The notes: generated by a model from the sequence alone, not told the origin. 64,000 bases of DNA from Chitinophaga pinensis (GCA_945863035.1 CAMAZH010000001.1:42-64041), one strand, 5' to 3'; shown: positions 35,405 through 57,298, counted from the first letter of the stretch. Numbers and translations: made by a program.

Positions 35405-38400
35405 TTACTGCAACAGGAATTTGTGGCTTATAACAGAATCATTTGTGATGCATCTTACAATGTATAATCCCCTGTCGAAACGATTTGTATTTAAGCGCTT
35501 TATCCCTGAGAAATTTTCGAGATCGGAATAGACAAGACATCCCTTTGAGTCGAATACAGAAAACTGTTTGATTCCAGTATTCGCGGCGTCGATAATGATG
35601 TAAGAACCTGCCGGATTTGGATATATGCTGATTACCTGGTCAGTACCTCCAATCGACCCGATAGCGGTATTAAGTTTTGGGTAGAGTTGATAAAAAGGCA
35701 CAACTTCTTTTGGAAGGCTTGAACTTTCCCATTCAAGTTTCACGAAAGCATCCCCTGATTTTTCTGCGTAATCGAGACGGATGTTTACTTTCTGACCTGC
35801 CGTCAGCGCAATCGTTCCGGTATGGGTTTTTCCTGTTGAGGTTGCAACCCACGCATCGATTACCAACTGGTCGTTCACCCAAAGTTTTCCGATGTCATTA
35901 ACAGTTAAACTGAAAGTATGCTCTTCCGTGAACAGAGGTTCCAACTGTCCTTCCCACCTGATATTCCAGAAATCTTTATCAATTCCGCATCCGGGTGATA
36001 CATCGGCCCATTCCTCATCAATAACAGGATCAGTTTCACCGCACATAAGCTCAACAAACCATGTTCTTCCTCCAATGGATGCTTTCCAGAGACTCTTGTA
36101 CAAACCTTCGCCATTTCCGGGATAGACAACGTCCTTTTCTTTAAAAACAATATTATCGATGCTAAAACCTCCCATGGCATTCTTTACAAAAAACCTCATG
36201 ATATGAGTTCCGGCAGTAAGCCTGAATTCAGTGTCTATAGTTGACCAGACATTCATTCCGCCGGTTGCAGGCAGAGAAATAACACCCGATTTTTCCATTC
36301 CGTCAATATATATTACAGCTTCTTTGTTTTCATTCTCTGCTGCATAATGAATGGCGGCTGTAAAGAGACCTATTGCCTTTACATCTACAGTGTATTCGAG
36401 CCATTCATTGGAATTAATAAAGGAAACACAATTTTCTCCTTCGGATTTTTCCTCAATATCTACCGATTCTTCCGGCCTGTATTTGCCGCCCCTGTTAATA
36501 ATATCTGCATCTGCATAAGCTACTCCTACGCCGCCATTATCAAAGTCTTCGAATTCTATGGTTCCCGGAATTTCCAATTGAGTGAATGGTTCCCGTGGGA
36601 GTGTTGTGACCTTGGAAGAACTGTAATTATAGTTAAACCTCCTGTCTGGCGCGGATTCCCCATCGGTAAAAAAAGCACTGATGTCTTTCAGGTGCTGTGG
36701 GTTATCGGCCCAGTGAAAATACAATTCAGGTGTACCTATTTCCATACCGAGGTCGGCTCTTGAAATACTGATCTCCATCTCCCGTCCCTTAACATGGTAC
36801 GCGGCAACGCCTGCATTGCCCCAGCTAATGCCATCCCATTGTTTCACAAAAGTTGCCAGACCTGGAATAACTTCCATGTTTACCGCATAATCGTACCCTT
36901 CCCATCCGGTGCCGTTTTTCCTGTCTACATCAAGAAATAGCAGCATCCAGTTGTTTCCTTCCGGGGGAGTAATGTTTTCGAGCGTTTTTACATAGAAATA
37001 CATGCTGTCATTATCGTAGGTAAGTCTGGATTCATCAATGTCGTTCCTGGCAGTTAAGTTCGTGTAGGTTGCCGTGTTATTGACATTTTTGAAATTCCGA
37101 TTTATTACATCCCCGGCAGCGTCTTTATATACAGGTGTAACATCCTGCCAGTCGGAAAAATCACCGTCAACCATGATGTTTTTTGGCTGTGAGATCGTTT
37201 CAGGAGCAGTCATTCCCTTGAACCGACGGATGTGAGAAACCAACTGGTAGAAATAGTTATCGGTATATCCCCCCTTCATTGGCTCGAGATCACGGTTAAA
37301 TTCCATGTTGAATTCGTCCACGAAATGCCAGCCGTGAGGCCATTTGTGGGTTCCGTCGGGGTTTCTGCTGAGGCAGGTTGATGGACTGACACATCTCCAG
37401 CTCGAATTGTTCCACTCTTTTCCCATAAAACGGACACCTTCGGTAGGCCATGCCCCTGCCATAAGTTCATTCCATCCGGTGATGCAAAGGATGGTTGGAT
37501 CTACTTCATGGCCTCGTGTCCATTGTTCTTCGAAGAAATAGCCATATTTAGACTGATCGGTTTCCCAATACTGATCGTATTCGGGTGCTTTCTTATTATG
37601 AGAGCTGCTTCCCTGAAGGGTAAAGTCGAAAAGGGGAGCACCCATAGCCTTGCATACCGGCATTTGCTCGGGTTTACCGTCGAGTATATAGTAATCTTGC
37701 GGGTATGTATCCAGGAAGTTCCACTGACCGGTTTCAAAAGCCCATGTTCTGCGCCAGGTAAAGAAATCCTTAACTGACTCGTCCAGACAAAGAGCACATT
37801 GTGTTGCACACTTTACCGAATCGGCCATAAGGAGGGGTTTGCCTTCCCATTTAAAAATCATCGGATCATACTGTGGATTGGTATAGATTTTTTCCATTAC
37901 ACAGGTTAGGGCAGAATTATAGTTTTCGTTCATGAAGAAAGCAATTTTCGGAACGGGGATACCTTTTCCCTGCATATCGAGGGCAACAGTCATGAAATCA
38001 TCAAGTGAATTGCAGCCCTGGTTTCCGTTGGTGAAATCAAAAAACACAAAATCCACACCTGCATTGGCAAGCATCTGGAGGTTTCTCCGGGTCGACCATG
38101 GATCGCTCGGGTGATAGAAGCCATTTTCAGGTTCACCCCAGTAATAATTCATACATTCAAAGGCAGGACTATCCGGATTTTCACGGAGAAGTTCCGGTAC
38201 CGGTCTGATGGGTTTCTGATTGGAAATGTCAGCATGCCATAACCAGTAGAAGACCCCAATATACTTGTCGGATCTGTAATTCCCGCATTCACTGTAGGAA
38301 GGAAGGATCCTTCCAATACCATCTGTTGCAACCCACTGGTCTGAATATGCTTTGAGTTGTTCTGTTTGGGTGGATGCAGAAGGATTCCAGACAAAAACTG

Positions 38401-39598: not shown

Positions 39599-39607
39599 GG
39601 TTGTTGT

Positions 39608-42211
39608 TTAATTTACCTTTAGGAACTTCTTTATTAGTGTCATATCTTCAGCAAACAGCATTGTGTTATAGGCTCCTTCTGAAAACCTGCTTATATCGAT
39701 GCTCTTGGAACCTTTAAAGGGTTCCGCGCTTTCATATACAAGTTTTCCATCGGATGAAAGGATCCTGATTTTTTGTATGTAATATGTGTCGCTGCTTATA
39801 TACAGTCTGAGATTTGCAGGGTTGGGAAAAACGGTTATTCCGTAATCAGAAGTTATTTCAATTTTATTTACTGATGGGGCTGAGGATTTTTTTGTCTCCA
39901 CAAGATTCCAGGTAAGCCCCCGGGATGCTTTGTCAAAAAAAACCTTGAGCTGATGCACTCCCTCCTCCAATAAAAGGGTATCCCTGATATCCTTGTAAAT
40001 ATTGGCAGCTCCGGTCTTATCCACTTTTATCGGTCCGGAAATATCCAATTCATCTATTTCAAGGTGGAAGAAATTGTCATCCACCGTTGAAGCAAAGCGG
40101 AAAGAAAATTCAAAATACCCGCTCTCATTTACATTTACTGTATAGTTCAGCCACTCGCCCGTGGCAATAAAACTCACATCATACGCTCCGGAACCATCTT
40201 TTGTGGCCACAATATCCACTCCTTCATCCGGCCTGTAGGCTCTGCTTACATTTGTAGCATCATTATCCTTATACCCCTCTTCGACACAGGAATAATTAAA
40301 ATTTTCCGCTTCAATGATTCCTGGTATTGTATTTACTTTGTATGGCATACTGCTGCCAGTACAAACAGGCTTTTCCGAAGGCTCATCCAGATAGTCCAGA
40401 AAGAACCGGCTTATTTCCCTGTCCGGGTCTTTCCATGGGTGCGTGATTCCGCTGGTAAGAGCAGATGAGCCGTTTCCAGGAGCAACAACATAGGAAGAAT
40501 CCGACATGGAGAAAAAGCAATAGGAACCATCAGGGGTTTGCAAAAGTATAAACTTTTCTGCGATGCCATCAATACCGGTTTTTATGGCCTGGATGCCACT
40601 TGCATTGCTAATGTATTTGTTTTGTCCGAGCGAGAAAATGGAATAGCTGCCATCTTCGTTATCCTCAAGCCTGTATCGTTCATTTATCCCAACAGCATCA
40701 GATGAGGCGATGAGTTGTGATGCTGAAGCCGTAAGGTATTTATTATTTGCATGGGATCTGATTGAAATTGTCTTTGTCATTTTTCCGGGTGCCATTCCCG
40801 ATATTTCACCTCCAGTGAATTTCCACCAGTTAAAATGAAATCCCCCCAATGTGAAAACGAAATAAACATCATGCACACCTGTTGCTCCACTGACATCAGT
40901 ATTAACTGTCTGCCAGGAATCATATCCCCCGGTTGCAGGAACATTAAGTCGGGCAACTGTTGTACCATTTACACTGTCGAGTCTAACTTCAATGGTTCCG
41001 CCAAGCGGTGATGCTACTCTTGCTTCGAAAGCAGACGCCCCGTTTCCAAAATCAACGCCAAACATTTTTATCCAGTCGCGGGAGTCAATATCGCTTACCA
41101 TTCTGCCACCGCCTTCGTCATTACAGGCTTCGGTTTCAATGCGCTCTTCCCTGCCAATGGTTTCGGCTTCCTGACGGATATAGGGATTCAGATATTTCAC
41201 CTGTTTCAACCCTTCTTTGGTAATGGTTTGAGGTATTATGGTTCCATCAGGATTGAAATAAATCCTGTCAAGTCCAACATTACGCTGGTAGCCGTAATTT
41301 TCATTTCGCAAAGCAGAAAGGATTTTGCTATGGTATAAACTATAATAATTTCCTCCGAATTCAAACACAGCTGGCTGAGTATTATCACCCTGAACGGGCC
41401 ACATCATGGTTCGGCCGAATACTCCGCCGGGTTCAATAACCGGACCTGTCGGTGTTGCAAGAAAGTTATAACGGTGAAAATAGTCGCCTGTCTGACCGCA
41501 TCCGTCGGGTGGCATGTTATGCTGAGAGCACGCCCAGAGTTCCTGGTCGTTAAAAGTCATGTACATGTAATAATACTTATCATTGATTTTTCTGACAAAA
41601 GGGGCTTCATGCGCATCATTGTTCCAGACATTATACTCGTGGGTATCTGAATAATCATACATATTGGCAGCGAGTTTTCTGACCAGACCGTTCGGCCAGT
41701 AAGCATAGGCTTGTCCATCATCATCAATTAAAACACCAATATCAACGCGATGCCCCGTTATCATTAAATTTCCCCTTGGATCTGTAAAGGGGCCTAGTGG
41801 ACTGTCGCTTACGCAAACTCCGGTACCTGTTGTCAGGGGATCATTTCCATAATCAGGGGTGCAAAAATACAGGTAGAATTTCCCATCTCTTTCAATGGCT
41901 TCAGGAGCCCAAAAGACTTGTTTTCCCTGAACACTAATGTAAGGAATTTCTGAAGCCATTAAAACCTCTCCATGATCTGTCCAGTTTAGTAAGTCATCAG
42001 AAGAAATACAGGTGTATCCATCCATTGAGAAATCACGCTGATCATCCAAGTCATGCGATAAATATACATAAACCCTTCCGTTGTAAACAACCACACAGGG
42101 ATCGGCGGTATATCGCTGACTGAAGATGATCTCATTGGCTTGTGTTTTAATAGCAGCAAAAGCAAGCAGCAAAGACATAAACACTATTCTTGTATTTTTC
42201 ATAATTTTCAT
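39608..42211 (-). CDS. GH43-family glycoside hydrolase with CBM6/35-like, beta-trefoil-like and CBM6/35-like modules and a T9SS CTD
   Basis: 867 aa. GH43 blocks: YTADPCVVVYNGRVYVYLSHD and FWAPEAIERDGKFYLYF. First CBM: EAETIGREERIETE...DWIKMFGVDFG. Trefoil-like repeats: NNKYLTA / QNKYISN / SSYVVA. Second CBM: IEAENFNYSC...GEWLNYTVNV. CTD: ITVFPNPANLRLYI. Confidence 0.85.
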   Translation of the reverse strand: MKIMKNTRIVFMSLLLAFAAIKTQANEIIFSQRYTADPCVVVYNGRVYVYLSHDLDDQRDFSMDGYTCISSDDLLNWTDHGEVLMASEIPYISVQGKQVFWAPEAIERDGKFYLYFCTPDYGNDPLTTGTGVCVSDSPLGPFTDPRGNLMITGHRVDIGVLIDDDGQAYAYWPNGLVRKLAANMYDYSDTHEYNVWNNDAHEAPFVRKINDKYYYMYMTFNDQELWACSQHNMPPDGCGQTGDYFHRYNFLATPTGPVIEPGGVFGRTMMWPVQGDNTQPAVFEFGGNYYSLYHSKILSALRNENYGYQRNVGLDRIYFNPDGTIIPQTITKEGLKQVKYLNPYIRQEAETIGREERIETEACNDEGGGRMVSDIDSRDWIKMFGVDFGNGASAFEARVASPLGGTIEVRLDSVNGTTVARLNVPATGGYDSWQTVNTDVSGATGVHDVYFVFTLGGFHFNWWKFTGGEISGMAPGKMTKTISIRSHANNKYLTASASQLIASSDAVGINERYRLEDNEDGSYSIFSLGQNKYISNASGIQAIKTGIDGIAEKFILLQTPDGSYCFFSMSDSSYVVAPGNGSSALTSGITHPWKDPDREISRFFLDYLDEPSEKPVCTGSSMPYKVNTIPGIIEAENFNYSCVEEGYKDNDATNVSRAYRPDEGVDIVATKDGSGAYDVSFIATGEWLNYTVNVNESGYFEFSFRFASTVDDNFFHLEIDELDISGPIKVDKTGAANIYKDIRDTLLLEEGVHQLKVFFDKASRGLTWNLVETKKSSAPSVNKIEITSDYGITVFPNPANLRLYISSDTYYIQKIRILSSDGKLVYESAEPFKGSKSIDISRFSEGAYNTMLFAEDMTLIKKFLKVN

Positions 42212-42214
42212 TTT

Positions 42215-42681: not shown

Positions 42682-42685
42682 TGTT

Positions 42686-45600: not shown

Positions 45601-47221
45601 AGGATTTTATAGTGGTCGTATTCAGATTGATAATTTCCATGTTTATTGCGAAGTCATAACCATTCCATCCTGTAGTGAAATCCCTATCTGCATCAATGTA
45701 TAGTATCATCCAGTTATTGTCCTGCCAGGATGTAAGAATTTCATTTGTTTTAACGTAGAAATAAATGTTTGAATCATCATAAGTAATTTTTGATTCGATG
45801 ATGTCATTTCGTCCGGTATTATTTGTGTTGAGGTAAACTTTTTCATCATCAAAATAACTGCGGTGTTTGGTGTCGCCTGTTGGATCCCTGAAAACAGGAG
45901 AGATATTGCTCCATTCAGAAAAAGCCCCGTCAATTTGGATTGTTGAAGCAGGGCTTACCTCCTGCGGGGGTTGCATTCCTTTGTATTGACGGATGTAATT
46001 CATCACCTGGTAGTAGTAATTGTCGGTAAAGTAGTTTTTCAATGGCCCCATATCGCGGTTGTATTCGATATTAAAGGCATCTATCATCCAGCGATCGGTG
46101 GCTTTATTTAGTTCTCTTCCATAAAAGCAAAAGGTGTTTGCTTCACCTACCGAAGGTCTCCAGACTCCTGCACCGCCTTCGTTCCACTGTGAGAAAGTCA
46201 TAAATCTGGGGTAGGAGGGTAGTTCAGGGAGGCGTTTAAACTGTTCTTTGAGAAATTCGCCTTTGCCGGTTAGGCTGTCGTTGTACCATAGTTCGTTTAA
46301 AGGAGGCTGATAATTGTCGGCTAACCTTCCACTTGAGCCAATAGGCGGAGTTGAACACTTGTCTTTGGTGTTAAAAGCTCCTCCAAATGCTTTCATCATC
46401 ACAAGCTGTTCAATGTTTCCCTCAGGGTCTTTTCCTGCTTTTTGCGGATAACCAGACATGAAGTTCCATCTACCCGGGCCATCCTGGTCTGCCCACATGA
46501 ATCGCCAGTTGAAAAAGTCAATAATCTCCTGATTCTTAACCAGGTGTTTTGGCCCCATTATAAGTGGCTTTCCATCCAACATAAACCATGCATCTTTGTA
46601 TTTTCCAGGTTTGTAAATGTTATTGTAAATATCGTTTATTTGGATGGTGTCAGCTGTAACCGCACCAATCCATTGACCAGCATGGTCATTGGTCCATAGA
46701 ACGATTTTAGGGGAAGGATATCCCTGTTTCTGCAGTTCGCAAATTTCGCGCATGGTGACTTCGAGGGAATGCCAACTGACAATGGTATTGGTGTAATCGA
46801 TAAAAATATAGTCAACACCAGCATTTCCAAGCATAATGAGCTGGCGGCGCTCGTACCAGGGATCAGAGGAGTTAACATATCCGTCTTCGGGCTCGGCCGT
46901 CCAGTAATTGAAAACAGCTTGTCCGGGATCCAGAGTATTCCATTCCAGGTTAATATGATCTTTTTCCAGCACTTCCATCACACTTCTGGATTTGAAGTTT
47001 ACAACGGCCTTGTTATGTTCCCAGAAGCCATGGGTAAGGTTGAAATACATTCCAACATAGCAATTGTTTTTTGTAATTCCGGTCTGCTCAAATGAAGGTA
47101 GTGTGCGTCCTGCACCATCGGTAACCACCCAATTGTCGCCAAAGGCAAAGTTCTGGGGGGTGGTTTGTCCAAATGTAACAACAGAGGCCAGTAATAAGGT
47201 AAATAGGGGAATTGTTTTCAT
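42686..47221 (-). CDS. Giant T9SS cargo: unassigned TIM-barrel-like core (copy P2), DG-x-FS-x-W beta domain, CBM6/35-like, PA14, FN3, Ig-like x2, second PA14-like, Ig-like, T9SS CTD
   Basis: 1511 aa. Core at nt ~45977-47149: YWTAEPEDGYVNSSDPWYERRQLIMLGNAGVDYIFIDYTN ... FSQWNEGGAG ... EYNRDMGPLKNYFTDNYYYQ. CBM: IEVEDFDLGGQMLAYYDADE...GEWLEYTVSI. PA14: YFSIRWTGQVQALTTETYTF. FN3: VKLNWTDNSAGETKFIIERK. Second PA14-like module: GYITYERWDNVPG...GDYTFYVAGDDN...HMSVKWTGP. CTD: ITIHPNPASDNLQI. Confidence 0.85.
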   Translation of the reverse strand: MKTIPLFTLLLASVVTFGQTTPQNFAFGDNWVVTDGAGRTLPSFEQTGITKNNCYVGMYFNLTHGFWEHNKAVVNFKSRSVMEVLEKDHINLEWNTLDPGQAVFNYWTAEPEDGYVNSSDPWYERRQLIMLGNAGVDYIFIDYTNTIVSWHSLEVTMREICELQKQGYPSPKIVLWTNDHAGQWIGAVTADTIQINDIYNNIYKPGKYKDAWFMLDGKPLIMGPKHLVKNQEIIDFFNWRFMWADQDGPGRWNFMSGYPQKAGKDPEGNIEQLVMMKAFGGAFNTKDKCSTPPIGSSGRLADNYQPPLNELWYNDSLTGKGEFLKEQFKRLPELPSYPRFMTFSQWNEGGAGVWRPSVGEANTFCFYGRELNKATDRWMIDAFNIEYNRDMGPLKNYFTDNYYYQVMNYIRQYKGMQPPQEVSPASTIQIDGAFSEWSNISPVFRDPTGDTKHRSYFDDEKVYLNTNNTGRNDIIESKITYDDSNIYFYVKTNEILTSWQDNNWMILYIDADRDFTTGWNGYDFAINMEIINLNTTTIKSFANEAWEILGTTKFLSSGNELEIVVSKASVGITSNTPQFYFKWIDNQQKLMDIKDVLINGDAAPDRRFSYYFNAAQDNNICQKPFITHEIPGVIEVEDFDLGGQMLAYYDADEINSGGKYRDTEKVDIETCSDGGFNLTSLADGEWLEYTVSIIESGLYQADVAVASVNGNDAFQLLLDGAVISEQLTTPATGGEQKWQNISASIQLPEGTHTLKLFVNKAQGGKINKINFTKISGLVYGKGDGLTAKYYNGEEFNNLVLTRVDPYVFQPREDHGYVPGQDRNYFSIRWTGQVQALTTETYTFSAQYDERCKLLVNGQLLINDWSGEHKSGSGNISLEAGKRYDIILEYSEKISENEIRLDWSTPTIPKQLVPQIQLYSAKLDILGTPAKLSAILNQDGSVKLNWTDNSAGETKFIIERKDGAGEFQQTGIVDFNISTFVDNTVTTPRNARWRVKASDGIAFSVSSNEAYVCWPHPITFEALPDVLSTSLPFNIHAVSDYALPLEFSVLNGPATISGDIVTLTDFRGVITLKTYSAGNDTVCPAEVSKTLNIIHDCRAQTITLDTLADKFADDVAPFELVSSSSVGLPVSFTLEGPASLNNNILTLHGAKGNVKVTAYQTGTYEFCAADTVIRSFQVKLPVNSCTNSDGYITYERWDNVPGNSVSEIPVQTAPAYSSTIISMDAPTNIGDNYGVRISGYLCAPYSGDYTFYVAGDDNVQLSLSTDTDKNNKVKIAFHEGWTAYQEWNLFSTQISDPIELIAGQKYYIEALLKEGVGGDHMSVKWTGPYGIDQIIPGEFLSPSCYPQTISFSSSYTRVSNDMFLISASSSSGLPVSFKVIKGAALMKGDTLVISKSDRITVEASQNGDETTCMASSSLNLFILNKLITDVEAHLDEAITIHPNPASDNLQISNYEFLINGIRIIDVQGRIKLKNDVPFIGSKTIDIKELPTGLYSIHLVTNKGVVMKRFIKQ

Positions 47222-47267
47222 GATTTGTTTTATGTTTTTTTTTTACAACAATTGCGGAAACTCCGAA

Positions 47268-50108
47268 TCAATCGATAATCACAGTAAATTGATACTTTCC
47301 TGAACCAGCCTCAAATACGATATATCCATCTTCTTTTCCCCTGAATTTTAAACCATTTACTTTGTTTAGTGCTTTGTTTTTATCAAAAATCACAATATCT
47401 CCTTCCCTAATTGCAATCTTCTCCGATCCGAAATCGGGTAAATGAATTAATGAGGAAGTATTCATGGGCAGAGAAACTTCCAGTTCAAAGAGCTTTTCTT
47501 TTTTACTCCAGTTTGACACGATCATTCCTTTTACGGAGTTGTATGTTGCACGCACAAATTCAAGATCTGCCGGGATAAAGGGTTTAATTTCTATTTCTGT
47601 ATATCCTGGAGAAAGGGGGCTAATTCCAGCCAGCACCTGGAAAAAGAATGTGTTTATTGGTCCTCCGTAATAGGCATGGTTCAGAGATCCCCTGCTATCC
47701 CAGAATTCATGCATGGTGGTTGCCCCATTTTCAACCCAGTTACCAACTGAAGGATAAGTTTTCTGGGCGGCCAGCTTATACGCAACGTCTTTATATCCAT
47801 TGTCGCAAAGGGCATTCCAGATATTGAGATAGCCAAGTACACCCGTGGAAACATGAAAATCCCTGTCGCTTATATCCTTTACCAGAGTGTGGAGCACATC
47901 TTTTTTGTTATTTTCCGGCACCATTCCGAAGTTTATAGCAACAGCATTAGCGGATTGACTGCCATTGGCGTAGGTGATGTCATCCTTAAGATAAGCCTTA
48001 TTGAAAGCGACTTTAATCCTTTCAGCCAGTCGGGCATATTTTTTTTCCTCATCGGTTTTTCCGAGTTCTTTGGCTACCAATGAAAGCAGGTAGGCACTCC
48101 TGTAATAAAATGCAGTGGCAAGAAACTCCCCCGATGGCTGGTCCAGTCCGCCATGATCAACCCAGCAACTCATTTTGTGTAAGCCCCCGGGCTCTTCATT
48201 ATTTTGTGCAAAGCTGATGAAACGGGTCATCATGGGATAATATTTTTCAAGCAGATTTTTGTCTCCATAAGCCATGTAAACACTCCATGGAATATATATG
48301 CATCCCGAGGACCAGGCAATATCGAGGTAAGGATATCCCTGTTCGAATCCATCTTCATGAATAAAATTCATAGGCAGGGTATTGGGTACATATCCTGAAT
48401 TATACTCCTTGAACTGCGAATCCTCAAAATCGACAAACCATTTTCTGTAAAAAGCCTGCATATCGAAAAGCAAACATGCTCCTTCAACGGTCAGATTGGC
48501 GTCACCTATCCATCCGTGTCTTTCATCCCTTTGCGGGCAGTCGGTTTGCATACCATATTGCAGGTTATTGACCTGCCCAAGTGCATATCCCTTAAATATT
48601 TTATTTAACACATCGTTGGAGCAGCTGAAGGCTCCGGTCGGATTCACTATATTGCAGACCAGTTTTCCCTGAATATTCTCTTCGGACGGGACTCCCGGGA
48701 ATCCTGATATTTCAACATATTGAAAGCCATGAATTGTAAAACGAGGTTCCCATACCTCCACACCACCACCTTTAAGAGTATAAACATCGGTTGCATCGGC
48801 TCCTCTGCCCGGGCGCTCCGGGAAAACGGTAAGATTCGACTGATCGATGGAGTTGTCGGCGTGTTTCCTCTCGGCATATCTAAGGGTGATTTTGGTGCCG
48901 GCCCTGCCTGAAACACTAAGTTGAACCCATCCGGAAATATTTTTACCCATATCTGCAACATAGACCCCATTTCCCTGTGCCCATATCTTTACAGGGCGGA
49001 TAGTCTCCATTACTTTCATTGGGGTAAGCTGCGCGCTCATTTTTATGTTTTCGGTTTCCTTCGGACAAGCTACATTGGAAGACCAATTCCGGTCGTCGTA
49101 CCCGGGCTTGTCCCAATTGTCCTCTTTTCTTGCATCATATTTTTCACCATCATAGACATCGTTCTTTTCGTTATGGAGCAAGGGCCCATCTGCAAATGCT
49201 TTCCATTGGTCATTGGTAGTGATTATTTGTTTTGATCCGTCAGACAGATCAATCTCCAGCTGAAGAATGGTTCTTCTTTTCTGAAGCAAAGGATCATTGT
49301 CTGTTCCATTTCCAAACCATGTGCCGATCCATCCTTTTCCTACCATAATGCCCACCGCATTATTGCCTTTGCTCAACAGCGTTGTGACATCATAAGTTGA
49401 ATAATATGCCCTGTGTGAGTATACCGACATATTGGGTTCGAGTACATTATCGCCGGCTTTTTCGCCATTTATCCTTAATTCGAAGAAGCCAAAACCGGAA
49501 ACGTATGCACGGGCTTTAACAATATCGACAGGTAGACTGAACTCATGCCGGAATTGCTCATAATCTCCTCCAATCCATTCTGCCTTCCATTCGTCCATGG
49601 TGAGCATGGCCGTTTCGAAAAAGGCAGGATCGCTCCATTGTGATTTTCGCCCATGCTTATTCTTAATCTGCACCCGCCACGAATATTTTGTTTTGCCGGC
49701 GAGAGGTTTCTTTCCGGAGTATTGAATGGCACTTTGTTTTTGACTTTTAACCCAGCCGGAGCTCCAGACATCGCCATTCAGTTTATTGATATTATCCTCA
49801 TTTGAAGCGACAATGATCTTATATGCTATTTGAGTTTCTGCACGGCCTCCACCCTGATTTTTCCAACCGAATACCGGTTGACCGGTGTCAATCCCCAAAG
49901 GGTTAATGATATCCTCAACCCTGAGATCACCGGGCTTTTCAGAACTGGTTTCCAGATTATTATCCGAGCAGGATAAGAGAGAAAAAAGGATACACGAATA
50001 GAATATTATTCCTTTAAATGACATTTGCATATTGCTTAAAAGTTGATAATTATTTTTTTTGTTTTTCATGACATAATTATTGATCAGAAAGAGTGGCATA
50101 CAGTTCAT
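47268..50108 (-). CDS. alpha-L-rhamnosidase, GH78 family (probable lipoprotein)
   Basis: 946 aa in the track. The likely true start is the internal MQMSFKGIIFYSCILFSLLSC. N-domain: LRVEDIINPLGIDTGQPVFGWKN. Catalytic (alpha/alpha)6 block: MQTDCPQRDERHGWIGDA. Confidence 0.9.
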   Translation of the reverse strand: MNCMPLFLINNYVMKNKKNNYQLLSNMQMSFKGIIFYSCILFSLLSCSDNNLETSSEKPGDLRVEDIINPLGIDTGQPVFGWKNQGGGRAETQIAYKIIVASNEDNINKLNGDVWSSGWVKSQKQSAIQYSGKKPLAGKTKYSWRVQIKNKHGRKSQWSDPAFFETAMLTMDEWKAEWIGGDYEQFRHEFSLPVDIVKARAYVSGFGFFELRINGEKAGDNVLEPNMSVYSHRAYYSTYDVTTLLSKGNNAVGIMVGKGWIGTWFGNGTDNDPLLQKRRTILQLEIDLSDGSKQIITTNDQWKAFADGPLLHNEKNDVYDGEKYDARKEDNWDKPGYDDRNWSSNVACPKETENIKMSAQLTPMKVMETIRPVKIWAQGNGVYVADMGKNISGWVQLSVSGRAGTKITLRYAERKHADNSIDQSNLTVFPERPGRGADATDVYTLKGGGVEVWEPRFTIHGFQYVEISGFPGVPSEENIQGKLVCNIVNPTGAFSCSNDVLNKIFKGYALGQVNNLQYGMQTDCPQRDERHGWIGDANLTVEGACLLFDMQAFYRKWFVDFEDSQFKEYNSGYVPNTLPMNFIHEDGFEQGYPYLDIAWSSGCIYIPWSVYMAYGDKNLLEKYYPMMTRFISFAQNNEEPGGLHKMSCWVDHGGLDQPSGEFLATAFYYRSAYLLSLVAKELGKTDEEKKYARLAERIKVAFNKAYLKDDITYANGSQSANAVAINFGMVPENNKKDVLHTLVKDISDRDFHVSTGVLGYLNIWNALCDNGYKDVAYKLAAQKTYPSVGNWVENGATTMHEFWDSRGSLNHAYYGGPINTFFFQVLAGISPLSPGYTEIEIKPFIPADLEFVRATYNSVKGMIVSNWSKKEKLFELEVSLPMNTSSLIHLPDFGSEKIAIREGDIVIFDKNKALNKVNGLKFRGKEDGYIVFEAGSGKYQFTVIID

Positions 50109-50122
50109 TGGATTCCTTCATG

Positions 50123-53100
50123 CTATGCTTTTACAAATTTTCTTACAACACTCGTGTTTGATTTTCTCATTTTTATAATATAAATACCACTTCTGAATTC
50201 GCTCAGGTCAATGATTTTACTGTCGTAAAAGGCTTCACTGCAATGAAATACAAGTTTGCCGTTTTCATCTGTTATCTGAATATCATCCAGCTTTAAATTC
50301 TTGCATGTTATTTGTAGCTTATTGGATGCAGGGTTTGGAAAGACCTGTATTCCATCTTCTTTCAGATTTTCATGAATTTCATGCTGCCTGAGAGATGTGT
50401 TCAACGAGTCGGTTTGTACCAGAAAGGTGTATGTACCCGACCCGGCAATCCAACTTGTATAGTTGCCTTCTTCTTTAATAAATTTCAAACCCTTTGCATT
50501 GTTTTTAACTGAATCCTGCCAGATTAGAATATCTCCTTCATGAATGCTTTTACCTAACTTTCCATATGGGATGCGGACTATTGCTGTTATATTTGCAGGA
50601 ATTGTAAGTTCCCATATTAAGTTTGTTTTTGTTTTTTTCCAGTTGGAAGAGATGTAGCCTTTAACTGTGGCGACCTTGGCGGAAGCACTATCAAGGAGGG
50701 TTTCTGTTCCTGGTTTCAGTTGGATGGTATCAAATCCGGCCGATATGGGTTTTATACCTGCTGCATGATTAATGAGCCAGTTGGCCACCGATCCCGCTAA
50801 ATATGGATGATTTTTTGAAAGGTTTTGATTATCCCAGTGTTCCCAGAAAGTACCGGGGGCATCGGGTACAGTAAGCATATATCCCCAGCTCGGAAAGGAG
50901 GTTTGTGCAGCAAGGGTATAGGCCATATCGTTGCTTCCGTTGTCGGCGAGCGCAGGCATGAGCGAATAGGTACCAAGGGCTCCTGTTGATACATGACTTG
51001 TTTTCGCGATAGTGTTCCTCAGGTAAAGAACCACATCTTCTTTATTTGCATCAGGTACAATGCCGAAGTTAATAGCAATTGAATTTGCAGCCTGACTGTT
51101 ATTATCGTAGCGATTACCTCCAAGCAGATATTTGCTGTTGATAGCAGTTCTGATGTTTGCTGCGAGGGTTGAGAAAACAGAATCGTCGGATGTGCGGTTT
51201 AACACTTTCGCCATTTTCGCCACGATATTTGAACAATGAAAGAAATAGGCTGAGCCCATAAAATCATTGGAAGGTTTTGCTCCGCAAGTATTCCAGTCGT
51301 TCCATTGAATAAGCGGACCTTCGGTTGAATTATCGAGAATATAGTTGTTGTTTTTATCGAGGGATTTGTACCAGTTGACATAGCGTTTGCAGCGTTCATA
51401 CGTTTTTAGGAGAATAGAGATGTCGCCCGACATCAGGTAGAAATCCCAGGGGATTGAAACGCATGCTGAGCCCCAGATAACATCGTCGCCACCGCCTCCG
51501 GGTATCAGGACACCGGATGCACCATTACCTTTTTCGTCTATCAATATATCATTAATCCATTTTTCATAAAACCGGAAAGCATCAAAATACAACATTGCCG
51601 ATTCAGAGGTAACCATAGCATCAGCCAGCCAACCTGCCCGCTCAGCGCGCTGATTGCAGTCGGTAGGGTAACCCATCATGTTGTCTAACTGGGTAATTTT
51701 ATATGCATTACATATTTTCGTTACTAATGGATTTGAACAATCGAATGAGCTTTGCCGGCTTGTAATATCACTATGGATAAACTTGCCTTTTATGCTGTTA
51801 ATGGTTGGTGTTCCGGGAAAACCTCTAACTTCCACGTATCTGAATCCGTGATAGGTAAAGCGGGGCTCCCAGACTTCAATCCCGTTGCCTTTGCAAATAA
51901 AGGTGTCGATTGCTTCGGCTGGCATGCCCTGTAAGTTTGAAGTGTTGTTTAATGTCCCCGTTCGGTAGAGTCGTTCAGCAAATTTTAAGGCAATTGCTGT
52001 TCCCGCAGGAGCTTCGACGGTAATTTCAGCCCAGCCGCTGATGTTTTTCCCCATATCAAAAATGTAGATTCCGGGGCCAGGGGTAGTCATCGCAACCGGT
52101 GTAATTATTTCGTTTATCCGGATTGGCTCCAGCTGCGCCTTAACATGACCTGAAAATCCGGAGCCCCATTGTCCAAGGCCTTCATCAAATGTCTCATTAT
52201 ACTCCTGGTTTCCGGAAACAGAAATTACCAGATTATCAATATGGGAATGTTCCAACCCCGAATTCCTGATTCCGATTCTGCCGGAGGTATGAGAATTATC
52301 ATTTAGCTCATTTACCAAAACATTATTAATATATGTTTTAACAATTGGTCCGAGAGTTTCGATTTTTATATTGTACCAATCTTCTTTATTAATTGCAGAT
52401 GGAAGGTCAAATTCTCCGATCAGGGTGTAACTGCCGTTTATCATTTTATGCGGACGTAACCGGCCAGGGTTGCCGGCATTAATCTGCCACATATATAAAT
52501 TTTTCTCATCAGTTGCACGAAAAATAATACCTGTACAGATGTTGATAATTTTTATATCCCCTTCAAGGGTAAAATCATTCCAGCTTTGTCCTTCCCGGAT
52601 AAAGCCTTCCTCCCCGCCCTTAGCGTCAAGTATTCCATTGGTCACTTGCCAGCCCGCAGGGATGCCTGGGGAGGATACCACCGGACTAAGCCAGGCTGAA
52701 TCGTCAAAACCTGGCATATTCCATCCAGGCAGCTCTTTTCGTGCATCATACCTTTCACCGTCGAATACGTGCTGATGCATAACAGGACCTCCCCAGAGTG
52801 ATTTCCATGAGCCATTACTTGTAAGGGTTTGAGTGGTTCCATCGGTGTACCAGATATCGATCTGACAAAGGGCTTTTTTGTATTCGTCTCTGTAGTTGAG
52901 ACCCGTTCCAAGCATCATCCCTATCGCGTTATCTGCACCAGGATTCAGCATGGAGGTGATATCGAAAGTAACGTACAGGTAAAGATAATTCGCTCCTCCT
53001 GTTTGAGTGGGAAGCGGGTCAAGCACATGATCGCCTGCTTTGTGACCATTAACAAAGAATTCGAACCAACCTGTGCTGGTGACATATGCGCGTGCTTTAC

Positions 53101-53605
53101 TGATTACTTTTCCGTTTTGAGTTGGAAATTCATTTCTCAGCAAATTAAACCTGCCTGAAAGAAAAGAGGCTTTCCAGTCCGATTCCTTAATCATGGCTGT
53201 TTCAAAGCTTGCAGGTGCGCTCCATGTGCCCCGAAGTCCGTCTTTATCCCAGGTACAAACCTTCCACCAGTATTTTGTTCTCCCACATAAGTCAGTACCC
53301 TGATAAAACACTCCATTCTGTTTTGATGAATAAATCCTGCCTGATGACCAGATATCTCCATTATCTGCATTAATAATTGCTTCGGAGGATGCAACTATGA
53401 TTTCGTATGCGGACTGTTTTTCATCCCGGTCAGAGTCATTTACTTCCCAGCTGAACCGCGGTTGAGGATCGTCAATGCCTAAAGGTTCTATGCAATAATT
53501 CACGCGCAGGTTGGAGGGCGGAAGTGGTGCGACCTGTCCGGAAACAGGCACGAAGCAAAAGATCAATGCCAATAGCAGCGAAACAGCAATTCCAGATTTT
53601 ATCAT
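50123..53605 (-). CDS. alpha-L-rhamnosidase, GH78 family, with an inserted concanavalin/DUF1080-like domain and a T9SS CTD
   Basis: 1160 aa. GH78 blocks: NLRVNYCIEPLGIDDPQPRFSWEV and YPTDCNQRAERAGWLADA. Relative to the 946-aa paralog there is a ~190-aa insertion: GWQVTNGILDAKGG...WNDFTLEGDIKI...GIIFRATDEKNLYMWQI...WYNIKIETLGPIVKTYINN...GRIGIRNSG...IDNLVI. CTD: IQVFPNPASNKLQI. Confidence 0.9.
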   Translation of the reverse strand: MIKSGIAVSLLLALIFCFVPVSGQVAPLPPSNLRVNYCIEPLGIDDPQPRFSWEVNDSDRDEKQSAYEIIVASSEAIINADNGDIWSSGRIYSSKQNGVFYQGTDLCGRTKYWWKVCTWDKDGLRGTWSAPASFETAMIKESDWKASFLSGRFNLLRNEFPTQNGKVISKARAYVTSTGWFEFFVNGHKAGDHVLDPLPTQTGGANYLYLYVTFDITSMLNPGADNAIGMMLGTGLNYRDEYKKALCQIDIWYTDGTTQTLTSNGSWKSLWGGPVMHQHVFDGERYDARKELPGWNMPGFDDSAWLSPVVSSPGIPAGWQVTNGILDAKGGEEGFIREGQSWNDFTLEGDIKIINICTGIIFRATDEKNLYMWQINAGNPGRLRPHKMINGSYTLIGEFDLPSAINKEDWYNIKIETLGPIVKTYINNVLVNELNDNSHTSGRIGIRNSGLEHSHIDNLVISVSGNQEYNETFDEGLGQWGSGFSGHVKAQLEPIRINEIITPVAMTTPGPGIYIFDMGKNISGWAEITVEAPAGTAIALKFAERLYRTGTLNNTSNLQGMPAEAIDTFICKGNGIEVWEPRFTYHGFRYVEVRGFPGTPTINSIKGKFIHSDITSRQSSFDCSNPLVTKICNAYKITQLDNMMGYPTDCNQRAERAGWLADAMVTSESAMLYFDAFRFYEKWINDILIDEKGNGASGVLIPGGGGDDVIWGSACVSIPWDFYLMSGDISILLKTYERCKRYVNWYKSLDKNNNYILDNSTEGPLIQWNDWNTCGAKPSNDFMGSAYFFHCSNIVAKMAKVLNRTSDDSVFSTLAANIRTAINSKYLLGGNRYDNNSQAANSIAINFGIVPDANKEDVVLYLRNTIAKTSHVSTGALGTYSLMPALADNGSNDMAYTLAAQTSFPSWGYMLTVPDAPGTFWEHWDNQNLSKNHPYLAGSVANWLINHAAGIKPISAGFDTIQLKPGTETLLDSASAKVATVKGYISSNWKKTKTNLIWELTIPANITAIVRIPYGKLGKSIHEGDILIWQDSVKNNAKGLKFIKEEGNYTSWIAGSGTYTFLVQTDSLNTSLRQHEIHENLKEDGIQVFPNPASNKLQITCKNLKLDDIQITDENGKLVFHCSEAFYDSKIIDLSEFRSGIYIIKMRKSNTSVVRKFVKA

Positions 53606-53670
53606 TTCATTAACGCATTTTTATTAATAATATCCCTTTAAACCTGTACGAATCGTTCAGGTAAATTTTG

Positions 53671-56313
53671 TTATATTTTGGAGAGTAATTTCGTTATTTT
53701 CCCCATGGAGGTTGTAAAATGTAAAAAGTACAATCCATTGTTGAAACCAGTTAAATCTACTTTATTATTGCTTGAAAAGCCCGTTGATTTTGTGAGGATT
53801 ATTCTTCCGGAGAAATCGAGAATCTCGAGTTGTTCAATTTTTTCCTGATTATTGTAAGGCTCCCAGGTAATATAAACTTCTCCCTCTGTAGGATTGGGAT
53901 AGACATTGATGAATCCGGTACAGGATTTTTTTTCAATATCGGATAATGATGAAGCAGAAAGCATATAGGATTTATTCTTCCATACTGTTCGGCAATACCC
54001 GGCCCCTCCGGGCTGTAATGCTGATATTGCCACAAGCCCTCTGTCAGCCGTCAGTTTTATGGTGTCTCCGTTTAGAACAGCGGGACCTGATAAAATCTTG
54101 TATTCGATGGGTAAACCGGATGCAGAAGTGGCATTTAGCTTAAACAGACTGTCGCCAACCTGCTCACATGCAACAGGAAATTCAATGGTTTGAAATAAAC
54201 AAACAGGATCTAAAAACTGGCCTGAAATAATATCATCTATATTATTCGGACCTGTCCACCTTACACTCACATGGTCTTCACCATTGTTCTCTTTTAAGAG
54301 TATTTCAATGTAATGTTTCTGCCCTCCGGACAGTGAAACAATAGCGGATTTTTGTGATGGGAAAAGATTCCAATTCCGGTAGGGGGTCCAATCATTAACA
54401 TAGGCAATCAGTTGTTTGTTTGTCATGCTTTCATCTTTACTCATCCAGAACTGACATCCATCATCGCCTGAAAGGTAGAATGTGTATTCGCCTGTATAGG
54501 GGGCGCATAAATATCCTGATAATCTTGTGCCATAAAAGTCACCAATATTTTTTGGACTTTCTAAAACACTCAATATTGAAAAGAAACCGGATTCCGAATC
54601 AACAGGAATCAGATCAATTTTGCCGCCCTGTATATTGTCCCATCTCTCATAATTTACATATCCCTCACAGTCGTTGCATGCATGAGGCGGTAATGAAACA
54701 TAAAACGACTGGGTAACAATTGCTGCCTCGCAAAACGTGAAATTTCCGGGTTGGCTTGCTCTGATAACCACCTTACCTTCTGAACCTGTAAGTTGAAAGG
54801 AGGAATCGCTGATAAAGATGGCTGGGCCGGAAACAAGACTGAAAGTTACCGGTAATCCGCTATCGGACATTGCGAACAGAACGATAGTGTCTTTCCCTAA
54901 TAGATGATCCTGAATCGGATCAAAAGTAATACTCTGTGATTCGCATTGATTACTTATTTTAAAAGAGCATAGTGCTCCGCTTTCGCAAATAGTGTCGTTA
55001 CCGTTATGGTAGGCACGCAGGCTTACATTACCTGTGTGGTTTGTCATTTCCACCTGATTCCCATTAATAATAGCGGGCCCGGTTATAACTTCATAAGATA
55101 ATGGTAATCCGGCATTTGAGATGGCGTTAACCGTGATTATACTATCAGAAATAATTGGATCGATTTGTTCAAATACAATCGTGTCAGTCAGACAAATCCC
55201 TTTGAATTTTCTCACTTTACTTTTCAGAATTCGCATATACAAGTCGCCATGTCCACCCTTCATAGGCTCAATATCGTTGCTGCGTTCCGGATTCATTTCT
55301 TCACCCGGATTATCAGGGCAGCCTGTCCATTCGTTAAATGACTGCACCATAATAATTCTTACATCTGCCTTGATTGCTAAATCAAGCTGGTCTCTGAAAG
55401 TCTGACCATTGTTTCTTGGTACGGTAATATTTCCGAAGCCGTACTGTCCATCGTTAAGCCATCCCGGAAGGTTAATTCCTCCTGTTCCCCTTAAGCCAGC
55501 CTGAACGGTCATACACTCAGGCATGCCATTATACATTGAGTATCCAGGGTTGGTGTATTCTTCCCACGACCAATAGGAGGAATGATTGTAGTTCAGATTA
55601 TGCTTTCCAAGGCCGGATCCGATTTTTTGGCATGTGAAATCGGGGTGCGACACATTTGGGGTAAGGTTTTCAGGTCCCCAAATACCCAAAAAAGGTTTAT
55701 CGTTCAATTCAAAGTACAGCTCTCTTTTTTCAGGGTCAGTTAAATAATAGTTATAGATTTGGTTTCCCTTGTTTGTGAAAAAACCGTTTGTAAAATTGGC
55801 ATCCACCCCGCATCCACCAAGAAAAACAGCATACTTCAGAAAGCTCATTCCATTTTTCTTTCTCCAGACCTGGCGTTCAACAAATGCCATGGCATTATCT
55901 TCAATAGCCCATAAATGTTGGTTTTTGGCTCTGTTTCCATCTTCAGTTCCGCAATTGTTGCTGAAATCGAAAACAACAAAATCAACGCCTGCATCAGCAA
56001 GCCATTCAGTGTGCTGATCAATAACCATAAGGTCGGCTGATTCGTACCAGCCCAATTCAGGTTCGGCCCAGGTACAGCCTCCTTTGTTTGGCCAGGAGGT
56101 TGGAAATGAAAACCAGTTGGAGTAATAAACTCCGACTTCTTTGTCTGCATTACTATTTAAAGATTGCTCACCTTTCTGAGTTTGTTCAAGCTTTTCATCG
56201 TTCCAAACAGAAGGGGAGGGGTCTGCAGTAAGCACGTGCCGGATAACAGGATTCTGTGCCGTAGCGAAAGAGCAGCAAAGAAACATCATTCCGAAAAAAA
56301 TTATTATCTTCAT
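53671..56313 (-). CDS. T9SS cargo: unassigned TIM-barrel-like core (copy P3), Ig-like x2, PA14-like, Ig-like, T9SS CTD
   Basis: 880 aa. Core at nt ~55198-56142: TWAEPELGWYESADLMVIDQHTEWLADAGVDFVVFDFSN ... IMVQSFNEWTGCPDNPGEEMNPERSNDIEPMKGGHGDLY. PA14-like module: GYVNYERWDNIQG...GEYTFYLSGDDG...HVSVRWTGP. CTD: INVYPNPTEGEVYI. Confidence 0.85.
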   Translation of the reverse strand: MKIIIFFGMMFLCCSFATAQNPVIRHVLTADPSPSVWNDEKLEQTQKGEQSLNSNADKEVGVYYSNWFSFPTSWPNKGGCTWAEPELGWYESADLMVIDQHTEWLADAGVDFVVFDFSNNCGTEDGNRAKNQHLWAIEDNAMAFVERQVWRKKNGMSFLKYAVFLGGCGVDANFTNGFFTNKGNQIYNYYLTDPEKRELYFELNDKPFLGIWGPENLTPNVSHPDFTCQKIGSGLGKHNLNYNHSSYWSWEEYTNPGYSMYNGMPECMTVQAGLRGTGGINLPGWLNDGQYGFGNITVPRNNGQTFRDQLDLAIKADVRIIMVQSFNEWTGCPDNPGEEMNPERSNDIEPMKGGHGDLYMRILKSKVRKFKGICLTDTIVFEQIDPIISDSIITVNAISNAGLPLSYEVITGPAIINGNQVEMTNHTGNVSLRAYHNGNDTICESGALCSFKISNQCESQSITFDPIQDHLLGKDTIVLFAMSDSGLPVTFSLVSGPAIFISDSSFQLTGSEGKVVIRASQPGNFTFCEAAIVTQSFYVSLPPHACNDCEGYVNYERWDNIQGGKIDLIPVDSESGFFSILSVLESPKNIGDFYGTRLSGYLCAPYTGEYTFYLSGDDGCQFWMSKDESMTNKQLIAYVNDWTPYRNWNLFPSQKSAIVSLSGGQKHYIEILLKENNGEDHVSVRWTGPNNIDDIISGQFLDPVCLFQTIEFPVACEQVGDSLFKLNATSASGLPIEYKILSGPAVLNGDTIKLTADRGLVAISALQPGGAGYCRTVWKNKSYMLSASSLSDIEKKSCTGFINVYPNPTEGEVYITWEPYNNQEKIEQLEILDFSGRIILTKSTGFSSNNKVDLTGFNNGLYFLHFTTSMGKITKLLSKI

Positions 56314-56344
56314 TTGAGGTGCTTTGGATTTATTGTTTTTCGAT

Positions 56345-57298
56345 TTATTCTTTTGCGCTTTTTATTAACTTATCCTTCACGACATTATAATAAGCATAGG
56401 GGTCGTCGTTTGCATACTTGCGATTAGGATTGGTAACATTTTTTGTATCGTGAATTCCCCAGTGAATATTATCACAAGTATCGTCATACGAGCCAAAAAC
56501 ACTATAATGCTCAGCCTCTGTTACCCAATTTACCCGTTCTGTCCATTGTTGCTGGGTTAAAAATGTTGAGCTTCCCGGGTGTAACCCGGAAGTTGGACAT
56601 ACAAAACGTATTTTTCCATCTGAACTTTGCTGTTTATCACGATATCCCCAGCCATCTGTTGGAGTATCCTGGAAATCCTGATTATACTCGTGGGTTCCCC
56701 GATAGAATTTAGAAAGATAGGTTTTATGCTCACCCGGGGTGCCATTCCATAGTGTGTCAACTAATACACCGGGATAAAACATCGTAATCATTTTCCTGTT
56801 ATCACCAAAACCGTAAGTTCTGTAATGACTATCCTGTGCGTAATTTTCCCAGATATATTTTGCCTGGTTGTTCCAAAACTCTAAACTACCTACAGTTTTT
56901 ATATACGCCGGCATACCCTGTTCCATTCTCACAGCATCGGATACAACTGCCCCAATCATAATGAAATATTCCATCTTTTTTTCAGCACAAACGGTTCGTA
57001 TGTTGTCAATCATTGGTTTGAATTCATCCCACAATCGCGTCCATTGTGATGGATTTGTCATATCGATATATACGATATTAATACCGGCATTCTGGATATT
57101 TGAAAGTATTCCCCGAACCTGCTCAATATCTCCATAATCGTGTTTAGGTTCCCACTTCTCGTTTATTAAAAAAGGTCCCATGTTTGTGCCCCTGCAACAA
57201 ATCAGCAGGCCGGTAACAGGTTCGCCGGCTTGTAAATAATGCGGGTAAACACTTAAAATTAATACTATTAGCAGTAATAGTGTTCTTGCTTTGTTCAT
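56345..57298 (-). CDS. Secreted protein of unknown function; possibly a stand-alone, divergent relative (P4) of the P1-P3 core
   Basis: 317 aa with signal peptide MNKARTLLLLIVLILSVYPHYLQAG. The only similarity I can point to is NIQNAGINIVYIDMTN against AGVDF[VI]FFDFTN in P1-P3. Confidence 0.6.
   Translation of the reverse strand: MNKARTLLLLIVLILSVYPHYLQAGEPVTGLLICCRGTNMGPFLINEKWEPKHDYGDIEQVRGILSNIQNAGINIVYIDMTNPSQWTRLWDEFKPMIDNIRTVCAEKKMEYFIMIGAVVSDAVRMEQGMPAYIKTVGSLEFWNNQAKYIWENYAQDSHYRTYGFGDNRKMITMFYPGVLVDTLWNGTPGEHKTYLSKFYRGTHEYNQDFQDTPTDGWGYRDKQQSSDGKIRFVCPTSGLHPGSSTFLTQQQWTERVNWVTEAEHYSVFGSYDDTCDNIHWGIHDTKNVTNPNRKYANDDPYAYYNVVKDKLIKSAKE

Follow-up and report, generated by a model that had tools for sequence, protein, structure and literature searches.

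What is the large module that three giant secreted proteins carry beside two α-L-rhamnosidases in a 64,000-nucleotide stretch of Chitinophaga pinensis DNA, and what would it do there? The stretch (the window) is part of contig k141_256685 (ENA assembly ERZ27280308), and an earlier note made from its sequence alone had described the module as a TIM-barrel-like catalytic core of no assignable family, present in three or possibly four paralogous copies. Open reading frame (ORF) calling in the window found the genes for the four proteins, P1–P4, as described, in a co-directional array on the minus strand (Table 1). We conclude that the cores of P1–P3 are probably secreted glycoside hydrolases (GHs) of the type IX secretion system (T9SS) that belong to an uncharacterized family of the GH99/GH71 clan and act with rhamnosidases on a rhamnose-containing glycan; we infer their substrate and mechanism from sequence, predicted models, and gene context.

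As had been claimed, the cores lie outside established family models, since no Pfam or NCBIfam model matched any core at threshold and NCBIfam matches were limited to the T9SS tail. Single-sequence searches of the PDB with the P1 and P3 cores gave nothing significant, and GH99 was reached by family profiles only. A P1-family profile built from 75 sequences matched BtGH99 (E 7e-7), BxGH99 (4e-5), and human MANEA (6e-4) in the PDB, and a P3-group profile matched BtGH99 over nearly the full chain (E 2e-10). Against the Pfam GH99 model (PF16317), P3 scored 20.3 bits (E 3e-4), under the gathering score of 33 bits; P1, P2, and P4 had no match, and weak matches, again below the gathering score, occurred in only 29 of the 75 family members. 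An AlphaFold2 model of the P1 core plus the next domain (pLDDT 91.4, pTM 0.92) retrieved GH99 first in Foldseek (probability 1.00, target TM ~0.5), followed by the GH71 enzymes AnGH71C and Agn1p, and no core had a GH71 sequence match in the PDB or Pfam. P4 matched nothing in Pfam, NCBIfam, or PDB sequences, and its profile gave spurious antibody matches only, but the top Foldseek hit of its AlphaFold2 model (pLDDT 92.6) was also GH99 (MANEA E 7e-8, TM 0.5-0.59). GH99 structures, which are (β/α)8 barrels, thus head the lists for both the P1 and P4 models (probability 1.00 in each case), and the profile matches and predicted structures together indicate that P1–P4 all carry GH99/GH71-type barrels. 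These results bear out the proposed (β/α)8-type module, in three and at the fold level four secreted proteins, and overturn the view that the core cannot be placed, as all cores, and not that of P3 alone, are remote homologs of GH99/GH71. The resemblance to GH99 and WbsX noticed earlier in P3 survives in its GH99 part, which extends to every core; the WbsX part does not, as Pfam Glyco_tran_WbsX (PF14307) had no match at E ≤0.01 in the four window proteins or the 75 family members.

P1 and P2 are 36% identical over 961 aa (BLASTP E 0), and P1 and P3 gave only a patchy BLASTP match (E 3e-7). A profile of the P3 subfamily (13 closest relatives) aligned with the P1-family profile at an hhalign probability of 99.9% (E 7e-35). 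Because of the P1/P2 identity and this profile-profile match, the claim of three paralogous copies holds. As for P4, the possible fourth copy, its sequence similarity to the P1-family profile was not significant (probability 28%, in the β2-β4 region only), but kinship is seen at the fold level, where the best match of its AlphaFold model is GH99, as for P1. P4 also keeps an AG[IV]-x-h-x-h-D-x-T-N motif (A-G-I-N-I-V-Y-I-D-M-T-N, aa 71-82). Judged by its model, P4 is a separate, second, and more remote family with the same GH99-like barrel. The four motif blocks ascribed to the P1–P3 cores are present, except that P2 reads W-T-A-E-P-E and G-Y-V, one residue off register, and P3 has D-K-P-F instead of G-K-P.

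The residues that line up with the GH99 active site are conserved in part. GH99 and GH71 share a D/E-x-x-E dyad, which reads E-W-[H/G]-E in GH99 and D-Y-G-E in GH71 (PMC12394665; bioRxiv 10.1101/2022.12.21.521504). In BxGH99, E333 activates O2, E336 is the general acid, and both Gln mutants are inactive (PMC6055899). In the P1-family profile alignment, the family N-E-W aligns with N-E333-W of BxGH99, and an invariant Ala of that alignment falls on E336. The E333-equivalent Glu is invariant (E711 in P1, E348 in P2, E328 in P3), whereas the E336 position is occupied by Ala, Ala, and Gly in P1 (N-E-L-M-A, A714), P2 (N-E-G-G-A), and P3 (N-E-W-T-G), respectively. Among ~310 family sequences, this position is A in 216, N in 41, S in 15, G in 14, and E or D in 1 each (~99% non-acidic). 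Hence, the first Glu of the GH99 dyad is kept and the second is replaced, and P1–P3 have N-E-x-x-A/G where GH71 has D-Y-G-E. The acidic pairs of the earlier note cannot be read as a GH99-type dyad: the Glu of its "NE" is the counterpart of the O2-activating base E333, but the general-acid position is Ala or Gly.

The cores have a conserved acid set of their own. In 98 cores from several subfamilies, D521, W626, E644, G686, N710, E711, D770, and P773 (P1 numbering) are 100% conserved, and E772 is 99% conserved. In P1, these residues fall in F-F-D-F-T-N (D521), K-P-E-Q (E644), G-W-N-E-L-M-A (N710-E711), and N-R-D-L-E-P (D770 and E772), with D761 as a further key residue; the key residues of P3 are D116 (V-F-D-F-S-N), E266, N327-E328 (S-F-N-E-W-T-G), E338, and D347 plus E349 (S-N-D-I-E-P). 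Strand 2 ends with the D-x-T-N motif that contains D521, and D770 and E772 lie in an R-D-x-E-P-M-K-G-G loop that is parted from N-E-W by an insertion absent from GH99. P2 has E348 (Q-W-N-E-G-G-A) and D390 but is the single exception at the E772 position, with Gly392 (N-R-D-M-G-P; aa 381-393, window 46043-46081) where 97 of the 98 superfamily cores have Glu, and from its sequence may be an attenuated or non-catalytic paralog. Several conserved aromatic residues are also missing from P2. In P4, Y-D-D-T-C-D (D273-x-x-D276) comes right after the strand at 265-270, with D276 invariant and D272 and D273 at least 90% conserved; as placed from predicted secondary structure without superposition, this D-x-x-D would stand where the D/E-x-x-E dyad of GH71/GH99 is expected, and resembles it. 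On sequence grounds, the P1–P3 cores are not GH99 members, because their Pfam scores are sub-threshold, the general-acid position is non-acidic, and the conserved acid set is different.

In P1, a signal peptide, a CBM6/35 module, an unassigned β-rich region, and an Ig-like repeat precede the GH99-like barrel, which is followed by a CBM9-like sandwich, a CBM6 module, a PA14 module, and a T9SS C-terminal sorting domain (Pfam matches: CBM_6 in two stretches, PA14, and Por_Secre_tail). P2 runs from a signal peptide directly into the barrel, and continues with a CBM9-like sandwich, CBM6, PA14, Ig-like repeats, a second PA14/GLEYA region, and the sorting domain. P3, which lacks the CBM9-like domain, consists of a signal peptide, a short GH99-like barrel, Ig-like repeats, PA14/GLEYA, and the sorting domain, and its C-terminal 490 aa are 39% identical to the P2 C-terminus. 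As expected of T9SS cargo, P1, P2, and P3 match PF18962 and TIGR04183 above threshold and have an N-terminal signal peptide; P4 has a signal peptide only, without a T9SS domain. In the P1/P2 subfamily, the CBM9-like sandwich directly follows the barrel in 79 of 80 loci and has conserved W, R-N, T-G-W-x-G-Y-D, and A-P-D-R-R-F-N-Y motifs. Pfam thus agrees with the CBM6/35, PA14, and T9SS sorting domains read from these proteins earlier; the FN3 modules were not detected, and the Ig-like modules correspond to genuine ~85-aa internal repeats, to which Pfam assigns no family.

Observations from other genomes connect the family to rhamnosidases. We called ORFs in 80 genome loci and clustered them all-against-all, and 79 of these loci were counted for adjacency. 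First, the most widespread neighbor clusters in the 80 loci were GH106-like (12 loci), GH78 (12), short GH78-like (7), and GH2 (7), leaving out a 7-locus histidine-kinase cluster. Second, a rhamnosidase-type gene lay on the same strand within 1-3 genes of a family gene in 24 of the 79 loci (6 genes away in L003), including loci from Abditibacterium, Phycisphaerales, Planctomycetota, Bryobacteraceae, Chthoniobacter, and Verrucomicrobia. Third, the share of rhamnosidase-type genes was 12.3% at a distance of one gene, 7.9% at two, 2.9% at three, and 1/350 at four or more, a near versus far contrast with a Fisher p of 3e-10 in loci that are not fully independent. Finally, in an unbiased Pfam scan of 94 random same-strand neighbors, GH106 and GH78 ranked first, followed by GH43, CBM6, and GH2, and sulfatases, GH92, and the usual α-mannan partners were not among the 25 most frequent Pfam families of these neighbors. 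A member of the 390-aa subfamily (P0138) sits between two GH78-type genes, P4-family genes occur near GH78, rhaM, and DUF5722, and single sulfatase genes lie near P0138 and near one P4 relative. Conserved rhamnosidase neighborhoods in other phyla, data from outside the window, therefore support the link to a rhamnose-containing polymer that had been drawn from the window itself.

In one 1303-aa representative (P0308), a P1-family core is joined to DUF5722 (PF18989), and up to three tandem copies of DUF5722 adjoin P4-family genes (L082-L084 1-4225; L087 1027-4914), in one case along with rhaM. The domain seems to belong to this set of genes as one more partner of unknown function.

According to the mechanism that we favor, the surface-exposed modules would cut a rhamnose-containing polysaccharide, probably in endo fashion, and the adjoining exo-rhamnosidases (GH78, GH106-like) and GH43 enzyme would then shorten the released fragments. 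In this scheme, E711 would take part in catalysis and another residue of the barrel would donate the proton, most plausibly D521 or D770/E772 in the R-D-x-E-P loop. P2, alone in having Gly at the E772 position, may have altered activity or be non-catalytic, and P4, whose D-x-x-D stands where the dyad is expected, may be closer to GH71 in its action. Several points weigh against this proposal. The cores lack one member of the residue pair on which GH99 activity depends, and the E336Q mutation abolishes BxGH99 activity (PMC6055899). The similarity to GH99 is remote, with 9-13% identity and a TM of ~0.5. The rhamnosidase link is seen in only 30% of loci, which are not phylogenetically independent, and the neighborhoods point to no specific polymer, as GH43, GH2, GH3, and GH95 recur too. 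Moreover, Robb et al. 2017 (cited in PMC13063451) by its title reports a marine GH99-related protein that lacks catalytic machinery.

The main rival explanation holds that the barrels are non-catalytic binding or scaffold modules derived from a GH99-like enzyme, and that only the GH78, GH43, and GH106-like genes encode catalysts. We consider this unlikely. The lost GH99 acid, the absence from P2 of the 99%-conserved Glu of R-D-x-E-P, and the protein named in the Robb et al. title all speak for it, and the loss of the E336 equivalent leaves a small chance of a non-catalytic role. That protein is presumably OpGH99A (PDB 5NGW, deposited as "glycoside hydrolase-like protein"), which is likewise a divergent GH99-like barrel from Bacteroidota; it gave only a weak partial match to the P3-group profile (E 1.6e-3), no match to the P1 or P4 profiles, and ranked 23rd by fold for the P4 model. 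Four findings argue for catalysis instead. First, five acidic residues and N-E are invariant or nearly so across subfamilies at ~25% identity, a pattern typical of active sites and not of binding surfaces. Second, dedicated CBM6/35, CBM9-like, and PA14 binding modules are already present on the same proteins. Third, many members are ~600 aa long without a Pfam-assigned domain. Finally, GH195, which is only distantly related to GH99, is an active endo-hydrolase (PMC13063451).

If the cores are enzymes, their chemistry could go further than we propose. A bolder version, which we rate as rather unlikely, makes them the first cellular endo-α-L-rhamnanase-type family, one that would have retained the unusual neighboring-group chemistry of GH99: the Glu would activate the axial 2-OH of a manno-configured substrate, here 6-deoxy-L-mannose, a 1,2-anhydro intermediate would arise, proton donation would have passed to a new site in the R-D-x-E-P loop, and P4 would represent a second new clan family with a D-x-x-D dyad. 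GH99 enzymes are retaining and use an epoxide intermediate, and GH71 enzymes are classical inverting hydrolases. The endo-rhamnanase version would explain the invariant first Glu, the lost second one, and the cross-phylum adjacency to exo-rhamnosidases. Our literature searches on endo-rhamnosidase or rhamnanase families returned phage tailspikes only, and those combining GH99, GH78, and GH106 returned metagenome surveys only.

A second rival, that the cores belong to GH195, strikes us as quite unlikely. GH195 was created in 2026 for a GH99-related, T9SS-secreted endo-α-1,3-mannanase of Polaribacter (PbSulf1-GH195) that attacks diatom C6-sulfated mannan together with an S1_51 sulfatase (fused or adjacent) and GH92 (PMC13063451). 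Compared by description only, the resemblance is clear, as in both cases an endo-acting or putatively endo-acting module distantly related to GH99 resides in a T9SS-secreted protein of Bacteroidota, marine Bacteroidota in the case of GH195 (PMC13063451). The present family differs in being coupled to GH78/GH106 and not to sulfatases and GH92: neither partner was found among 28 window ORFs scanned with Pfam (four short left-half ORFs of at least 120 aa were unscanned: 446-850, 13765-14157, and two inside longer genes), which agrees with the earlier remark that the window has no sulfatases, and neither was among the top families of the 94 sampled neighbors. Sulfatase fusions were likewise absent from 8 Pfam-scanned multidomain representatives and, by S1 sulfatase signature, from 412 proteins including the P4-family set. 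In addition, soil, freshwater, and gut taxa commonly carry the family. The 5NGW protein is different from OpGH195, because the latter did not crystallize, and our literature search on GH194-GH199 found nothing related besides GH195. With a GH99/GH71-clan barrel, a rearranged set of putative catalytic residues, and a rhamnose-linked context of their own, the cores are a good candidate for a new CAZy family, set apart from GH195 by description only, but not a categorically new system.

Still less probable, in our judgment very unlikely, is that the cores are ordinary divergent GH99 endo-α-1,2-mannanases/mannosidases acting on α-mannan or N-glycans. GH99 (BtGH99 4ACY, BxGH99 4AD1, human MANEA 6ZDC) is the best match by both profile and fold; the cores and GH99 share the collinear motifs P-E-L-G-x-Y-S-x-D, G-K-P-L, and S/T-[FW]-N-E-W, the E333 equivalent, and a downstream I/L-E-P motif; and weak Pfam GH99 matches occur in the family, one member of which NCBI names "glycoside hydrolase family 71/99 protein." Unlike GH99, however, the cores have Ala or Gly in place of the general acid E336, with replacement of this residue of E-W-[H/G]-E in ~99% of members, and every Pfam score falls under the gathering threshold. 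They also have a 10-45-residue insertion between N-E-W and I/L-E-P, carry invariant D-x-T-N (β2), P-E (β5), and R-D-x-E-P-M-K-G-G motifs of their own, of which D-x-T-N and R-D-x-E-P are foreign to GH99, and in the P1/P2 subfamily are joined to an obligatory CBM9-like sandwich. Their genomic partners are rhamnosidases, which rank first among the sampled neighbors, and not mannan-degrading enzymes. GH71 α-1,3-glucanases (AnGH71C 9FNG, Agn1p 8YFH), the second-best fold match of the P1 model, resemble P1 and P2 in having a barrel followed by a tightly associated β-sandwich, and the D-x-x-D after the equivalent strand of P4 resembles their D-Y-G-E dyad; in contrast, there is no significant sequence similarity, and P1–P3 lack the second dyad acid. 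GH71 enzymes are mostly fungal and actinobacterial and act on α-1,3-glucan. Finally, we give almost no credence to a glycosyltransferase-like (WbsX-type) or transglycosylating role in which the cores would remodel polysaccharide on the surface of their own cell instead of breaking down nutrients, a reading prompted by the resemblance raised in the earlier note, by the TIM-barrel-type fold reported for WbsX-type proteins, and by the surface exposure of T9SS cargo, but opposed by the absence of a Glyco_tran_WbsX match, by the inaccessibility of nucleotide sugars to extracellular T9SS cargo, and by a catabolic layout in which the genes stand among exo-glycosidases, SusC/D genes, and a hybrid two-component system (HTCS) regulator.

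Table 1. Features of the array that encodes P1–P4, with positions counted from the first nucleotide of the window
Feature	Position	Strand	Length or residues	Type and basis
P1	35405..39598	(-)	1397 aa	T9SS cargo protein; ORF call
P1 CBM9-like β-sandwich	36629..37198	(-)	~aa 801-990	Foldseek match to CBM9 7nwo
P1 GH99/GH71-like (β/α)8 core	37199..38356	(-)	aa 415-800	Predicted by AlphaFold2 + Foldseek + profile search
GH43 gene, 2 CBM6 modules + T9SS sorting domain	39608..42211	(-)	867 aa	Pfam
P2	42686..47221	(-)	1511 aa	T9SS cargo protein; ORF call
P2 GH99-like core	45977..47149	(-)	aa 25-415	
GH78 α-L-rhamnosidase	47268..50108	(-)	946 aa	Pfam, all five GH78 domains
GH78 α-L-rhamnosidase, DUF1080-like insertion + T9SS sorting domain	50123..53605	(-)	1160 aa	Pfam, all five GH78 domains
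P3	53671..56313	(-)	880 aa	T9SS cargo protein; ORF call
P3 GH99-like core	55198..56142	(-)	aa 58-372	
P4	56345..57298	(-)	317 aa	Stand-alone secreted protein; ORF call
DUF1080 protein	57326..58345	(-)	339 aa	Pfam
GFO/IDH/MocA oxidoreductase	58359..59702	(-)	447 aa	Pfam
GH106-like lipoprotein	59847..62012	(-)	721 aa	Pfam PF17132, E 1e-12, C-terminal part only
GH120-like beta-helix protein	62454..63920	(-)	488 aa	

In the array, Pfam agrees that two GH78 genes and one GH43 gene are interleaved with the cores (Table 1), and window ORF annotation places SusC/D genes and an HTCS regulator in the same region. The closest solved structure for the window GH78 is the α-rhamnosidase 6i60 (E 3e-166), and a PDB sequence search with the GH43 protein found GH43 arabinofuranosidases and xylosidases nearest; this PDB comparison gave no substrate-specific clue from the nearest solved relatives of either. 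What had been called an unknown lipoprotein hydrolase is indeed a lipoprotein, and by Pfam is weakly GH106-like; it matched no PDB sequence, and its relatives adjoin family genes in 5 other loci. Between the GH43 and P2 genes, a 475-nt non-coding gap (42212-42685) interrupts an otherwise tightly packed array and may be an internal promoter or operon boundary.

Four GFO/IDH/MocA oxidoreductase genes and three DUF1080 ("3-keto-disaccharide hydrolase") domains are present in the window (25445-27898, 32950-35259, 57326-59702, and the GH78 gene at 50123-53605), one DUF1080-like domain being located inside that GH78 at aa 291-450. Together, these genes suggest an oxidative 3-keto-glycoside cleavage route parallel to the hydrolases. 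Further from the array, an MTTB-superfamily (trimethylamine methyltransferase-like) gene at 29246-30709 is an unusual partner in a sugar-uptake/catabolism operon with MFS, ROK, and SIS genes. In a 595-aa T9SS protein (4342-6129), the sorting tail is the sole recognizable domain, but 6 other Bacteroidota loci have a relative of this protein no more than 10 kb from P1-family genes, so that it may be a further enzyme without an assignment. A 960-aa T9SS protein (14193-17075) adjoining an HTCS regulator contains CBM6, CBM35, and Big_7, and the ~550 aa of it that have no above-threshold Pfam match may be a further unassigned catalytic module.

A fifth family member, of 615 aa and with 57% identity to the P1 core, is encoded on the same contig (k141_256685 39444-41291), ~40 kb beyond the window, where its neighbors are GH3, GH95, a weak DUF4185 gene, a GH43-CBM6-T9SS gene, and GH2, behind a second HTCS regulator. 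The basis for fucose as a part of the substrate, which the earlier note had proposed alongside rhamnose, is a single GH29 gene in the window and the single GH95 gene near this fifth copy.

The family is large. A word-indexed search with the P1 core returned 697 clusters at 90% identity, most of them ~600-aa "hypothetical proteins," and an exhaustive phmmer search found 1,865 representatives (50% identity) at E ≤1e-3 and 1,185 at E ≤1e-10. A scan of one genome per species located at least 582 loci. Carriers include Bacteroidota, Armatimonadota, Planctomycetota, Verrucomicrobiota, Hydrogenedentota, Acidobacteriota, Paenibacillus, and others, as well as metagenome-assembled genomes assigned to gut-associated genera such as Alistipes. 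Because 22 of the 79 loci hold 2-5 tandem copies, paralogous arrays like that of the window are typical. The P3 subfamily is small, with 33 matches that include 346-aa proteins of Streptomyces and Actinomadura, and the P4 family comprises 117 clusters, none of which is annotated.

If the cores are active, they would define a new glycoside hydrolase family at the least, with P4 perhaps adding a second. GH195 demonstrates that a distant kinship with GH99 is compatible with activity and that families of this kind are still being discovered (PMC13063451). Family genes are now annotated as "hypothetical" and are therefore missed in inventories of carbohydrate-active enzymes and polysaccharide utilization loci. 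The proposed activity would also provide a third natural experiment on the GH99/GH71 active site, with the acid relocated, and would fill a gap in the opening of rhamnose-containing polymers (pectic rhamnogalacturonan, arabinogalactan-protein caps, bacterial rhamnans, and algal or cyanobacterial exopolysaccharides) ahead of the GH78 and GH106 exo-enzymes.

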